A stretch of DNA of 64,000 bases, taken from the NCBI GenBank assembly GCA_963741205.1, contig CAVUHW010000034.1:128001-192000 (forward strand), written 5' to 3'. A program made the position numbers and the translations under genes. This DNA is from Nitrospirota bacterium. Its GTDB lineage: Bacteria > Nitrospirota > UBA9217. The notes under the pieces are model-generated. The model ran no database searches, was not told where the DNA came from, and worked only from the letters and a program-made list of their open reading frames with translations. This document shows positions 17,557 to 22,502 of the stretch, piece by piece (position 1 is the first letter of the stretch; every line of letters starts with the position of its first letter).

Positions 17557-18066
17557 ATGGTATGGCAGGTGGCAGAGAACAAGAGCGAGGAGATACTGCG
17601 AAATAGAGAACGGGTCCGGAATCAGAAGACCGAGCGAATTCCGAAGGTCTTTCACTCCGCATATCCGCAATCCGCAATCCGCAATCGAAAGGCTTTACCC
17701 TCATCGAACTCATGATCGTGATCTCGATCATGGGAATCCTCATCGCGATCGCCGCGCCGAACCTCAAAGTGTCCATTATCAGGGCGCGCGAGGCCGTGCT
17801 CAGGGAAGACCTGTTCCAGATGCGCGAAGCCATCGACCAGTACTATGCTGACAACGGCAAATTCCCCCCGACGCTCAAGGACCTGATCAATGCCCAGGAT
17901 CGGACGAGAAGCTACCTGCGCGACATCCCCAAAGACCCCTTTACGGGCGCAGACGACTGGATCACAGTGGCGCCGGAAGGAACGGACGCGGAAGGCGGCG
18001 TCTTCGACGTGCACAGCGCGAGCCCGCTTCTTGGCCGTGGACGGCACTGCGTACAATACCTGGTGA
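17557..18066 (+). CDS. Type II secretion pseudopilin (GspG/OxpG-like), start approximate
   Basis: KGFTLIELMIVISIMGIL; AIDQYYADNGKFP; YLRDIPKDPFTG; DGTAYNTW*. Confidence 0.8.
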
Positions 18067-18239
18067 TTGTTCCCCACGCCCTACTTCGTCGCAAAAAACG
18101 AACGTTTCCCGGGGATGACCATCAGCTCCGGTTTGTGAAGTATATTATTTATCATGGTAACCCGGCCACCCGGTTTTTTCTCCCCTGTTGCGTAAACTGA
18201 CCAAAATTATAGATATCCTTCAGTGGCATAGTAATTGAA

Positions 18240-18903
18240 ATGTGCTTTGCTTATAAAAAGAAGGCAGGACGGCAGTCTGTCTGGATTACTAGCGAGCTAT
18301 TCAGGTTCGTTCCTACTGGAGGCTCAAAACAGCGGCAAGACAAAACTATATATGAGCACCGGCTGATGCTTGGCACAAAGTCGGTCGATCTGGGCGAACT
18401 TAAGTTCAAAGCTCATGATGAGTACGAGGTTCCGGCGGCTATCACCATTTCCCGGGAGTCCGAGAAATGGTATGTCTCCTTCTCCTATGAGAAGCAAGGC
18501 GCGGTTTTAAGCGAGCAGGAACTTCTCGAGCTTTACGGCGGCATGTCAACAGAGAGTCTTAATACCGTTACCTTGGGAATGGACCGAGGGGTTGATAATC
18601 CCGCTGGCAACGAGCGACGGATTTATGTATGACTTCTCCGGCATACAAAAGGAGCGTCTGGCAAAAAAGGATGCCGGAAGAAGAGATATCAGAGCAAATG
18701 GCAAGCGGATCAGTGACCGCCCGCATAAGCAAGCTGCAGCGAAATCAGCCGGTGCCAGGCTTATGCTGCCAATGTGAGGCATGATTTCGCGCATAAGGCC
18801 AGCCGCAGCTCGCGGATTCACCCGCGGAGGTGTTCGTCTTCGAGGACCGCAAGGTCAAGAACATGACCAGAGTGCCAAAACCTAGGAAGTCAGCCGGCGG
18901 GAC
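18240..18903 (+). pseudogene. tnpB: IS200/IS605 TnpB remnant, 5' part (interrupted by IS110)
   Basis: ITISRESEKWYVSFS, TLGMDRGV (RuvC-I), HDFAHKAS, VFVFEDRKVKNMTR (RuvC-II); frameshifted. Confidence 0.8.
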
Positions 18904-19039
18904 ATCCTATAATGCCCCTGTCAAGTACAAGTTCAGCACACTGATCTTTCAACACGATGGCAAACGGCACTTAAGCAGGGCGTAGTTCGCCATATAACCC
19001 GCGATGGGCATTCGTGCTTTTCTTCGACGATTCTCTCAC

Positions 19040-19190
19040 TGAAGCGAACTTGCTCTCTCAGCGTTATATTATCCGGCGTGCCGTTGCCGCCAAGCATCCC
19101 TTATCCAGATTCCAAGTTCTATGAGAGGCCCTGCATTGTCCCGCACGAGGTCATTTGCCTCAACGTATTGTCTCGGGCTCTCTACGTCGA
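19040..19190 (-). ncRNA. Predicted bridge/seek RNA core with target-binding and donor-binding loops (full transcript extent unknown)
   Basis: Target-matching loop segments at 19138-19144 and 19163-19168 around the GAGG/CCTC stem; donor-matching segments at 19063-19069 and 19095-19099 around the GGCG/CGCC stem; outer stems GAACTTG/CAAGTTC and GAGAGGCCC/GGGCTCTC. Confidence 0.7.
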
Positions 19191-19264
19191 AATATAATTT
19201 TCAGGGCTTCTTGCTCGGAAAACGCACGAGCAGGAAGCCCGTATTTGAGTCCTCTCGATCTAGC

Positions 19265-20555
19265 CTATGCCTTGCTATCCCCCTGGTTGAGGTATTTGGG
19301 GTCGTACGGCTCCTTCTTTTTCATCAGGGTCCAGGCAATGATCAGAAGCTTCGCTGCAAGTTTCACCCGCATCTTGGTGCCGATCCCTTTCTCCCGCTCC
19401 CGTCCCCGGATCTTGTTCGTGTGGTAAATGATAAACTCTTTGTTGTTGAGCGAGCAGATGATCGCCGCCGGATATAGTGCATAGCGAAGATCGCCTTTCC
19501 CATGTTTGGAGATCACGGCGTGGCGCTCTGTGACGTCTTCCCGCTTCGGCTCGCGCATAGGTCGAAGCCGGCCATCTTCAAGACCTGTTTGCCGGCCGTA
19601 AAGCGCTTGGGGTCTCCAATGGCGGCGAGGACCTTGGCTGACACATCCGGACCAAACCCCGGGATCGTGAGAAGGAACGAGTACTCCGGAAACTTCAGGC
19701 AGATGTCCACGATCTTGTCTTCAAGGTTCTTCATCGTCTCTCGGACGCGATGGAGAGCCGCCACCATGATCTGTGCCTCCACGGACACTGCTTCTCCGAC
19801 GATACAGCCTATGGACTGCTTGGCAGCCCGCCATATCTGCGTAAGCCGACCTGCTGAGGCAAACTCACCTTGCCGGGCGAGACGGTCCGGCAGAATTCAT
19901 CGTACTCCATGACCGAGATCAGCGAAGGGTCCAGACAGCGGCTTACCACGTTCAGACTCGCCACTGACCCGAAGTGCTGGTCCATCTCCGGGAAGTACTG
20001 GGCCAAAAGCTGATTGCGGATGCGGACCCGAAGGCCGTGCTCCTCCTTCTTGAGCCGTTTCTTTAAGGACAACAGGCCCCGCAGGGACCGAAGATCCTCT
20101 CCCGGGCAGTCGTAGTACAGGCATTTCCCTTGGGCTATCAGGTCGGCGACATTGGCGGAATCCTTCGTGTCGTGCTTATCCCACCGGCCGTCCAGAAGCT
20201 CCCGGTTCTTTGACGTGGCCGCCGCAGATACCAGAACCACCAAGTGCCCCCCCTTGATAAGATACTCTCCCAAGGGCTTGTGGTAGTTGGCCGTGGGCTC
20301 CAAGCCGAAGACCACCTTCCGGTGGCCGTGCTGCACCTTGAGGGCGTCCGTCTGGATCAAAAGCTTCTGAAAGCCCTCATAGGTATTGTCAAAGAACATT
20401 CCTTTGTGCAGCGTCTTGCCGGCGGCCGTGCCGAAGAAAGCGTTGTGCCGTTCCTTGGCGATGTCCAGGCCGATAATCAAATACTCCGTTGAACCTCGAA
20501 TCTCCTTTTGGAATCGACAAAACTGCTCGCGTCTGCTATCATTGAAATCATTCAC
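19265..20555 (-). CDS. IS110-family recombinase/transposase (DEDD RuvC + Tnp_20), two frameshifts
   Basis: LIIGLDIAK, GLEPTANYHK, KHDTKDS; LLTIPGFGP..AAIGD..GFDLCASRSGK..ISKHGKGDLRYALY; GTG start behind AGGAGG. Confidence 0.9.
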
Positions 20556-20616
20556 AGAAACCTCCTGCCTCAAGAATTTAGTTCCCGCATGAACTTATTC
20601 TTAGCAGGAGGTTTCT
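20556..20616 (-). promoter_or_regulatory. Anti-Shine-Dalgarno hairpin upstream of the IS110 recombinase
   Basis: Perfect 13-bp inverted repeat AGAAACCTCCTGC (20556-20568) / GCAGGAGGTTTCT (20604-20616) covering the RBS. Confidence 0.7.
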
Positions 20617-20691
20617 ATTTTGGATAGATTGAAAAAGAACTTCCTCTATGATTTACTGGGGAAGATCAACCTCATGCTCTATCCATATATA

Positions 20692-20745
20692 ACGTATATC
20701 CCGAACGGATCAAAGGCCAAGGCCGGTCTCAACAAGTCCATAATT
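20692..20745 (+). pseudogene. tnpB: TnpB remnant, 3' continuation
   Basis: TYIPNGSKAKAGLNKSI matches the TnpB 'NG.KAK.GLN.SI' motif; no zinc finger or RuvC-III recognisable afterwards. Confidence 0.75.
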
Positions 20746-20873
20746 GAAGTGATGCGGAATATCGCGTGGCGACGGATGCTATTAAACCTCTTCCTATCGA
20801 GAGTGTCTCATTCCATTGACGGACTCCGCATATCGGAGAGGGGCGGAGATTATCCATTTCGGGAGGGAATCAT

Positions 20874-22502
20874 ATGATGTTCAGAAGGCATCTTGCCTGG
20901 GTTTTGGTTTTACTGGCTGTAGCAGCGTTGCAGGCGTGCGGAAATAACTCGAGTTCATCGGAAAGCGGGACAACTTCTCAGACAGGCGTCGTAGCAATAA
21001 AACTTACGGACGCGCCGGGAGATTTCGATCATGTGTATATTACGGTGAAGGACATCTGGTTCCATACGAGCGACGCGGCCGATCCGCGTACGGGAGCCTG
21101 GCTCAAGTATCCGCTCACGCAACCCGTCATCGTTGATCTCCTGGCTCTCTCGAGCGGGAACATGCAGTCCCTCTGGAACAACATCCAGCTCCCGGCAGGC
21201 ACGTACCGGCAGATCAGACTGTTTTTGGAACCTACCAATCCGACCGCCGTCAACCCCGCCCCGACAGGCCACACGTATTTCAACGAGGTTGTCATCGGTT
21301 CAACGACCTCTCCCCTGTATATACCGGACGCCGACCACGGCATCATGCTGACCGGCGCGTTCGGCGTGACGGCCGGAGGCACGCTCAATCTTGCCATTGA
21401 CCTCGACGCCGGCCACGACATCGTGGAATTCCACGAAGGAACGGACTTCGTCTTAAAACCGAGGCTCAACTACTTCGACCTTGACCATGTGGGCGCCATT
21501 ATCGGCAAGCTCTCCACCGGCGGATCACTAACGGCCCCCCGTTTCGTGATCAAGGCCGAGCGTCTCTCCACGGAGAAGGAAATGGAAGACGCCGGCGCGG
21601 TGAGCCCTTTCCATGTGGTGAGACGCTGGACTGTTCCCAGGGCCGACGGTACGTTTATTCTCTATCCCGTATCGACGCTGGTCACCAGCACGTGGGATGT
21701 CGTGATCCGGGGCTTGAACACGGAGACCATGATCATTAAAGGGGTGCCGGTCACAAAAGGCACGACCACGGCGAACGGCACGGACCTCGCCGTCATCAGC
21801 ACGACTCCGACGAGTACCAATGACTACGCGGTCGACGGAACGATCCAGTCGCCCACGGGCGCATGGGTGCAGTTCTACCAAACCCTTCCGGGGGCCGGGG
21901 AGTACCCCTATGAGATCCGGTTCCGCCATTTCAATCCGCTCACGGGAGGTTTCAGGAACTTCCCATTGAACAACGATCAGATCCAGGTGGCGAATTTCGT
22001 GAGCAGCGGGGCAACACTTACGTTCACGCCGGAGACCCCTGCCGGCGGCGCCGGCAATTATGGCGCCGTGGCCGACGCAATTCTGTTCAAACACAGCGAC
22101 CCCATACCGGTCACTTCATCGACGACGACCGTCGCGTTCACAACGCCGCTTCAGGTGGTGTCTCCCTATAAGGGAAACAGCGTGACCGGCACGATCACCA
22201 TGAACAATCCGTTAAGGATGAACAATAAGATGGACAGGGGCCGGCTCTTCGCGGTGCACGGCGGAATGATCGTCAATGCCGTCGATGTCAGCAGTCAGAT
22301 GACGGGGACGACCACCAATGCATACAGCATCGATCTGCCCGGCGGCGATGCGGCAACACCGCTTCCCGGCGCCTTCTACGGGATCGATGCGGTCGGTTGG
22401 TCCTCGACGAGCCCCCTGTTCAAGGCGATAGCGATTCCTCAGATCGTGGATGTCCGCACAGGGAACGATATTGCCACGGTGGATATGCTGCCGCTCTGGT
22501 AG
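20874..22502 (+). CDS. DUF4382-domain lipoprotein
   Basis: Lipobox LQAC; IKLTDAPGDFDHVYITV, LPAGTYRQIRL, LAIDLDA, FVLKP. Confidence 0.8.
   Translation: MMFRRHLAWVLVLLAVAALQACGNNSSSSESGTTSQTGVVAIKLTDAPGDFDHVYITVKDIWFHTSDAADPRTGAWLKYPLTQPVIVDLLALSSGNMQSLWNNIQLPAGTYRQIRLFLEPTNPTAVNPAPTGHTYFNEVVIGSTTSPLYIPDADHGIMLTGAFGVTAGGTLNLAIDLDAGHDIVEFHEGTDFVLKPRLNYFDLDHVGAIIGKLSTGGSLTAPRFVIKAERLSTEKEMEDAGAVSPFHVVRRWTVPRADGTFILYPVSTLVTSTWDVVIRGLNTETMIIKGVPVTKGTTTANGTDLAVISTTPTSTNDYAVDGTIQSPTGAWVQFYQTLPGAGEYPYEIRFRHFNPLTGGFRNFPLNNDQIQVANFVSSGATLTFTPETPAGGAGNYGAVADAILFKHSDPIPVTSSTTTVAFTTPLQVVSPYKGNSVTGTITMNNPLRMNNKMDRGRLFAVHGGMIVNAVDVSSQMTGTTTNAYSIDLPGGDAATPLPGAFYGIDAVGWSSTSPLFKAIAIPQIVDVRTGNDIATVDMLPLW

Follow-up and report, generated by a model that had tools for sequence, protein, structure and literature searches.

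An IS110-family element with a GT core in a Nitrospirota genome very probably encodes an IS621-like two-loop bridge RNA behind its recombinase gene

Bridge recombinases are wanted as programmable DNA-insertion tools, and new lineages widen the choice of core, guide length and protein. In a 64,000-nt stretch of a Nitrospirota bacterium genome (assembly GCA_963741205.1, contig CAVUHW010000034.1, positions 128,001 to 192,000; hereafter the window), an IS110-family element carries a non-coding end downstream of its recombinase gene, and the locus raises the question of whether this end encodes a guide RNA for the recombinase and, if so, of which kind. We conclude with high confidence that a bridge RNA some 170 nt long, with the same sense as the recombinase gene, is encoded in the 3′ non-coding end, and that its two stem-loops are held in a closing stem. 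The ends of the element, its core, the conserved structure and the covariation of the target guides and of the left donor guide with the element's own DNA were all observed. The features are collected in Table 1.

Table 1. Coordinates of the element, its host element and the predicted bridge RNA in the window.
Feature	Position (sequence)	Strand	Basis or remark
IS110-family element, both GT core copies counted	18902..20693	minus	empty sites in the same genome; matches of the host element
Core GT copies	left 20692-20693; right 18902-18903	minus	
Host element, left part, with tnpB-like gene	18248..18903	plus	resumes at 20692-20748; genome match
DEDD/serine recombinase gene	19265..20555	minus	three frames, shifts near 19851 and 19516; ORFs, PF01548, tblastn
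Leader hairpin, 13 bp, perfect	20556..20616	minus	anti-Shine-Dalgarno CCUCCUG pairs with the CAGGAGG ribosome-binding site of the recombinase gene
14-bp hairpin between stop codon and bridge RNA	19204..19240	minus	93% complementary
Predicted bridge RNA, delimited by P1	19023..19192	minus	compensatory changes in 60 relatives; MFE fold
Closing stem P1	TTCGACG 19191-19185 / CGTCGAA 19029-19023	minus	also drawn by the MFE fold
Target-binding stem-loop (hairpin 1)	19123..19182	minus	covariation of structure and guides
Hairpin 1, outer stem	GAGAGCCC 19182-19175 / GGGCCTCTC 19131-19123		one bulged base
Hairpin 1, inner stem	GAGG 19161-19158 / CCTC 19150-19147		
Left target guide (LTG)	ATACGT 19168-19163	minus	
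Right target guide (RTG)	GCGGGAC 19144-19138	minus	next base, A19137, is the handshake position
Donor-binding stem-loop (hairpin 2)	19046..19119	minus	
Hairpin 2, outer stem	GAACTTG 19119-19113 / CAAGTTC 19052-19046		perfect 7 bp
Hairpin 2, inner stem	GGCG/CGCC		
Left donor guide (LDG)	GGAT(G) 19099-19095	minus	
Right donor guide (RDG)	(ATA)TAAC 19069-19063	minus	next base, G19062, is the handshake position
Alternative-helix strand UGAGAG	19033..19038	minus	complements CUCUCA 19127-19122; helix used by the MFE fold
TTGACA, right end (candidate promoter half)	18919..18924	minus	TTGACA..TATAGGATGT and GT|TATATAT conserved across relatives

The element's ends, together with its GT core, were fixed by uninterrupted copies of the insertion site in the same genome. 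A DNA search of this genome identified three such sites (L005, L007 and L008/L009), at which the flanks of the element abut with an overlap of two bases and which read, unbroken, ..CGTTCGGGATATAC-GT-CCCGCCGGCTGAC.., the target being ATAC-GT-CCCGC. In the window, read on the minus strand, the left junction is ..GGGATATACGT|TATATATGG.., so that ..ATACGT is followed directly by TATATATGG.., and the right junction is ..TATAGGATGT|CCCGCC... Since GT is present once in the empty site and once at each junction, it is the sole overlap of the target and the joined ends, and with one core counted the element measures about 1790 nt (~1.79 kb). The empty target and the core that had been read from the window by itself in the original prediction were therefore borne out. 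That this core differs from the CT of IS621 is also correct; a non-CT core is no novelty as such, as ISPpu9 is described as recombining at AG (PMC12288879).

The insertion point lies within the coding sequence of a tnpB-like gene, at the codons ..GGTYIPNG... The interrupted host element matches the window at 18248-18903 and 20692-20748, with query positions 924-925 used twice, and has 28 match places in its own genome; one uninterrupted copy (L008) encodes a Cas12f1-like TNB domain (PF07282, E 2e-18). The exact 11-nt target word ATACGTCCCGC was found 16 times in the genome, compared to twice for the reversed control, and 14 of these 16 words fall in listed copies of the tnpB-like host element. 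The locus also shows how a mobile element can home into coding sequence that belongs to a second one, here a tnpB-like gene with some 20 copies at least in this genome. All 16 perfect target sites are empty. The host element is thus highly repeated, and none of the 14 further exact target sites within it is occupied.

The recombinase gene starts with GTG at 20555-20553, preceded by GGAGG at 20565-20561, and an intact 430-aa homolog (P0002) was aligned onto it by tblastn in frames -3, -2 and -1. PF01548 was identified on the N-terminal piece of the window recombinase and PF02371 on the C-terminal piece of a sister copy in the same genome; the protein thus combines the DEDD RuvC-like domain and the C-terminal serine (Tnp) domain by which IS110-family bridge systems are recognized. 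P0002 scored 154.7 bits against the NCBIfam model NF033542, ‘IS110 family RNA-guided transposase’ (cut-off 140), and intact 430-aa homologs matched the IS621 transposase chain 8wt6_A (PDB) with an E of 5.5e-17, a ..RSG.. motif of the homologs being aligned with ..ESG.. of IS621. A tblastn search against plasmids returned only ‘IS110 family transposase’ at less than 30% identity, and for this reason no ISfinder name could be attached to the element. Both arms of the 13-bp leader hairpin are found in the leaders of homologs as well.

The predicted RNA begins about 70 nt past the recombinase stop codon, in the right end of the element, and not upstream of the gene in the left end as is the rule for the IS110 group. 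The stems and loop words of both hairpins were all found on the minus strand at the positions originally assigned to them. In the 359-nt non-coding end, ATACGT, GCGGGAC, GGATG and ATATAAC are each found a single time, following one another as LTG, RTG, LDG and RDG; the four words co-occur, in any order, in 3 of 50,000 mononucleotide shuffles, and the expectation for all four in this order, calculated as the product of the single-word frequencies divided by 24, is ~8e-7. Folding, which had been proposed as a check, was run on the 365-nt end: the MFE structure draws both P1 and a helix between UGAGAG and CUCUCA, within which the donor stem-loop lies and which is incompatible with the lower half of the target hairpin's outer stem, and its energy is ordinary (z = -0.84). 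The structure is consequently supported by covariation and not by fold energy. The span first proposed for the RNA, 19040-19190, stops short at the 3′ limit, where P1 carries the RNA on to about 19023; given the two strands of P1, the RNA therefore extends from about 19192 to 19023. No Rfam family was detected in the window from 18000 to 21500 at E up to 1, and no RNA run containing the sequence was present among the sequencing runs listed. A scan of 18850-20750 for promoters and terminators gave counts equal to the shuffle expectation, with no minus-strand promoter-like site before the RNA.

Relatives of the element were collected at the level of proteins and of genomes. Of 6,675 candidates in the protein search, 4,635 were relatives with an E of 1e-10 or lower; among the best 120 of the 4,635, a length of 430 aa predominates, and the few that are named belong to Nitrospirota or Nitrospiraceae. 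A scan of one genome per species gave 243 stretches encoding a relative, and the best 80 of these 243 loci, which come from Nitrospirota, Thermodesulfovibrionales, several Desulfobacterota, Binatia and others, were taken for the analysis. A strict pair of scaffold motifs was found in 65 of 81 related loci at a distance of no more than 330 nt behind the gene, and a looser parse reaching 1500 nt placed the RNA after the gene in 74 of 82 rows, the window included. Among the eight unparsed rows, L002, L033, L038, L040 and L078 reach the contig end or are empty behind the gene, L066 has a somewhat divergent version of the RNA, the gene of L050 is followed by other DNA, and in L072 the RNA was not found in the 260 nt after the gene.

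Both hairpins were predicted by RNAalifold on an alignment (A2) of 56 distinct RNAs, each with at least 170 nt after the motif, with 18 of 29 pairs showing compensatory changes. The structure was then named on a second alignment (A3) of 60 RNAs, from which 3 of 63 rows (L058, L082 and L083) had been dropped for insertions in the donor loop, and consists of five helices, namely P1 and the outer and inner stems of hairpins 1 and 2. The share of paired cells in A3 is 94.4%, compared to 84.2% after shuffling and to 31-47% after sliding of the partners; changes on both sides have occurred at 21 of 33 pairs, in agreement with an RNA of two stem-loops. Compensatory changes are seen in these 60 relatives at all six pairs of P1 and, in hairpin 2, at six pairs of the outer and five of the inner stem. 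Since G-U pairs are frequent (for example, in 25 of the 60 RNAs at one pair), only the recombinase-sense strand fits. The alternative helix CUCUCA/UGAGAG is also maintained in A3 (pair 95-205, AU 47, GC 10, UA 1; pair 94-206, CG 57, UA 2; pair 91-209, UA 47, GC 9), as is the competing GAGA/CUCU pair 24-91 (AU 51, CG 8, UG 1). Two mutually exclusive helices (19122-19127/19033-19038 and 19175-19182/19123-19131) hence share the CUCUC strand and both keep their pairing in relatives; they could constitute a switch or a sliding junction.

The covariation between loops and targets that the original prediction had named as its check was then examined in the relatives, and it held. The ends of the relatives were placed without use of the target loop, the left end as GT|TATATAT in nearly all cases and the right end as TTGACA followed, after ~11 nt, by TATAGGAT|GT. 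With identical pairs merged, matches counted as contiguous from the core and the kinship of loci ignored, the LTG matched the left flank over a mean of 5.80 nt, compared to 3.64 nt when shuffled (n=55 distinct pairs), and the RTG matched the right flank over a mean of 5.49 nt, compared to 4.50 nt (n=59 distinct pairs); on neither side did any of 10,000 shuffles reach the observed value. When only variable positions were considered and one locus was kept per distinct guide, the match was 4.65 of 7 positions on the left (2.55 shuffled, n=31) and 4.15 of 7 on the right (3.00 shuffled, n=20), again without regard to kinship and with none of 20,000 shuffles reaching the observed value on either side.

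The left and right target guides are thus complementary to the bottom and top strand of the target, respectively, and change together with the insertion sites. A clear case is L017, whose guides GGCTTAGT and GTTCTCCAC stand against the flanks CCGGCTTAGT and GTTCTCCACACG, and L077, L047, L059 and L026 are further ones. The sister copy has the loop CAACGT beside the flank ..GCAACGT, just as the window has ATACGT beside ..ATACGT, and in some relatives the left target guide reaches up to 10 nt. The exceptions are L025, which fits neither flank (variable positions matched, 0 of 7 and only 1 of 7), and L075, which does not fit on the left side (1 of 7). In 21 of the 55 left pairs the contiguous run is shorter than 5, mostly owing to single mismatches. 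One locus, L022, seems to be shifted in register by two bases, which gives an AT core: its LTG ends in ..AGAT, the flank reads ..GGAT|ATATATT and the RDG is ATAT. This RDG is followed by C, whose partner would be the final G of the left target, and the RTG still ends in AC.

For the donor guides the outcome differed between the two sides. In most loci the right end reads GGAT ahead of the core; the variants are GTAT (6), GCAT (1), GAAT (1) and GGATT (5), and the LDG mirrors the variant in 12 of these 13 loci. The left donor guide had been proposed as the 5-nt GGATG; of this, GGAT pairs reliably, and the fifth base, the G of the core, is unmatched in the GTAT and GGATT variants. On the right side the left end of the element is too uniform for covariation to be read, and only TAAC, the complement of GT plus TA, is complementary throughout the family. 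The 7-nt ATATAAC originally proposed as donor-right guide matches as such in the window and its small clade, to which the 7-nt match is confined, and was rejected as the family-wide RDG. The core is represented as GT in the LTG and as AC in both the RTG and the RDG; the LDG holds only its G, and the GTAT and GGATT variants lack even this.

A left target with C as its last base goes with G just 3′ of the RDG (46 of 47 loci, the exception, L077, being a parsing slip), and one with A as its last base goes with U (6 of 6 loci, from three lineages). This is the behavior of a handshake base as defined in PMC11208158, where the handshake guide of IS621 is described as acting in the same way.

The comparison with known systems placed the RNA closest to that of IS621. 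The IS621-like two-loop reading of the original prediction was supported, with a conserved scaffold, target guides that track the flanks and the guide orientation given for IS621 in PMC11208160. As in that account, the target-binding loop comes first and the donor-binding loop second; in both loops the 5′ strand has the top-strand sequence of left half plus core, and the 3′ strand is the reverse complement of core plus right half; and ATA..TAT surrounds the donor, as for the IS110 group (PMC11208160). The two systems also share the handshake base 3′ of the right guides (PMC11208158), a short right donor (2 nt plus core, 2 bp having been varied in the published IS621 work), a -35/-10 pair, here a predicted one, at the circle junction and the same two recombinase domains. 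Unlike IS621, in which the RNA is described upstream of the gene in the left end and the core as CT, the present element carries its RNA downstream in the right end and has a GT core; its recombinase is of 430 aa (328 aa for the IS621 chain), its left donor is of 4-5 nt (a 7-bp left donor was varied in the published IS621 donor screen), its LTG is longer in some relatives, and its stem-loops are united in a junction by a closing stem, besides which there is an alternative helix.

Other members of the family share part of these traits. The seekRNA of ISEc21, of the IS110 family, likewise has the bottom-strand match 5′ of the top-strand match, and ISEc21 also targets the transposase gene of another insertion sequence, at IS3-family DDE codons instead of a tnpB-like gene; its RNA is, unlike here, upstream of the gene, and its transposase has 358 aa (PMC11187229). 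ISPpu9 and ISPpu10, IS110-group elements of Pseudomonas putida, resemble the present element in their site-specific insertion into a repeated sequence, in a non-CT core (AG) and in a structured 5′ leader that limits translation; they differ in that their bridge RNA is described upstream, the downstream Ssr9 RNA being reported as dispensable for transposition (PMC12288879).

The position of the RNA raises the alternative that the element belongs to the IS1111 group and has a seekRNA as understood for that group and not an IS621-like bridge RNA, and the original prediction had itself pointed to IS1111-type elements. Downstream of the gene is indeed the usual IS1111 place (PMC11187229, PMC11208160), and the IS1111-group seekRNAs of ISEc11, ISKpn4 and ISPa11 share with our element both this arrangement and a circle-junction promoter, which is a predicted one here (PMC11187229). 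Beyond that the likeness failed. IS1111 transposases are given as 330-350 aa, top-strand match first, and long subterminal inverted repeats as typical of the group (PMC11187229), whereas here the recombinase has 430 aa, which lies within the range of the IS110 subgroup and outside that of IS1111 (PMC11187229), and the order of the strand matches is the opposite. Subterminal inverted repeats of 7-17 bp were searched for and none was found near both ends; the highest-ranking pair, I1, shows 71% complementarity and has one arm 75-100 nt inside the left end, and only the short ATA..TAT surrounds the donor, as described for the IS110 group. Furthermore, both binding sites are simple internal loops, while the donor-binding bases of many IS1111 RNAs are reported to lie in a multi-loop (PMC11208160). 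By the features compared, the element is one with an IS621-like two-loop bridge RNA located behind the gene, only the RNA position being IS1111-like, and we regard an IS1111-group assignment as very unlikely. A downstream RNA is by itself an arrangement already known to exist, since some IS110-family elements are stated to have a non-coding region downstream (PMC11187229) and ‘the vast majority’, not all, of the IS110-group RNAs are placed in the left end (PMC11208160).

It could further be supposed that the hairpins are protein-binding or terminator elements of DNA or mRNA and that the loops match the flanks by chance. The unexceptional fold energy would be in line with this, as would the fact that words of 5-7 nt are common singly (GGATG is found in 40% of the shuffles); the ordered occurrence of all four words, given its expectation, and the change of the loops together with the flanks across relatives make such an explanation extremely improbable. 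A different doubt is that the bridge RNA is real but this copy is a dead relic, with a broken recombinase and no more movement in this genome, and this we consider a serious possibility while leaning against it. The window copy has two frameshifts, the sister copy (85% DNA identity to the window copy) contains a single in-frame TAG and is cut off by the end of its contig, the third copy in the genome is a fragment, and the 16 exact target sites are unoccupied. On the other hand, the frameshifts are absent in contigs from three runs of one study (X1, X2 and X4), which have one extra base after 19515 (X1 and X4) and after 19850 (X1, X2 and X4), exactly at the frameshift sites. These contigs lie on the element, X1 reaching the same right flank as well and having no listed difference within the two hairpins. 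No joints were seen in such DNA contigs, from which an absence cannot be read. The frameshifts of the window may therefore be assembly errors or strain differences, and the recombinase gene may be whole in the population. In any case the relic explanation concerns the activity of the copy and not its identity, and it is compatible with the bridge-RNA explanation.

With the bridge RNA as the preferred explanation, its transcription, processing, binding by the recombinase and chemistry can be pictured as follows. Excision would bring TTGACA (18924-18919) 17 nt upstream of TATATA (20691-20686) and so create a junction promoter; junction promoters are described for IS621, ISEc11 and ISEc21, and the candidate promoter function is inferred from these (PMC11187229). 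The transcript would begin with a leader whose 13-bp hairpin may hide the ribosome-binding site, continue through the recombinase gene and end with the bridge RNA. This is probably how the RNA arises, as the tail of the recombinase transcript: as there is no promoter-like site before it, processing from a long transcript is likely, as proposed for other members (PMC12288879). The first internal loop would then pair with both strands of the target, ATAC-GT-CCCGC, and the second with the joined ends of the circle, GGAT-GT-TA, and, in the manner of IS621, strand exchange by the RNA-bound recombinase would take place at the GT core common to both.

The clade combines IS110-type loops with an IS1111-type RNA position, and offers a GT core, left target guides longer than that of the window in some members and a natural covariation table of about 60 loci. 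These data overturn nothing known and document an uncommon arrangement, not a new kind, as a minority of IS110-group elements with a downstream non-coding region is already reported in surveys (PMC11187229, PMC11208160). No paper dealing with the clade came up in our literature search; members may already be included in the supplements of PMC11208160 and PMC11187229. A bolder idea, which we put forward only tentatively and hold to be rather unlikely, is that the clade (Nitrospirota, Desulfobacterota and other phyla) forms a separate lineage in which an IS110-type two-loop RNA moved to the 3′ tail of the transcript and became closed into a junction, where the choice between the CUCUC helices could act as a switch that couples the conformations of the target and donor loops or controls processing.

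Some further observations were made on the surroundings of the elements. The contig of the sister copy stops inside hairpin 1, and a search of the own genome for its predicted right-end junction gave only matches with two mismatches, none of them that copy. Two of these matches are solo right ends of other family members (L092 and L093; G000 C10 near 107823 and C12 near 106894), which read TTGACA..TATAGGATGT followed by CCCCAA and have no family recombinase gene nearby. The left flank of L061 is the right end of another copy (..TATAGGATGT|TATATC..), the two forming a head-to-tail pair. Short tandem or inverted repeats of their own target halves adjoin many relatives, at the right flanks of L036, L062, L064, L065 and L088 and at the left flanks of L010, L024 and L038, where GTCCCC.. 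or ..CAACGT.. is repeated and, in L024, AGGGACGTTG lies upstream; this suggests that the targets are clustered or palindromic repeats. In a Desulfatiglandales/Desulfobacteraceae subclade, the element contains an additional ORF of 320 aa, which follows the recombinase gene and precedes the bridge RNA (L046:4360-5322); the ORF of L046 matches Toprim_2 (E 3.6e-14) and DUF3991, and similar sequence is present in L047, L048, L051, L054 and L056.
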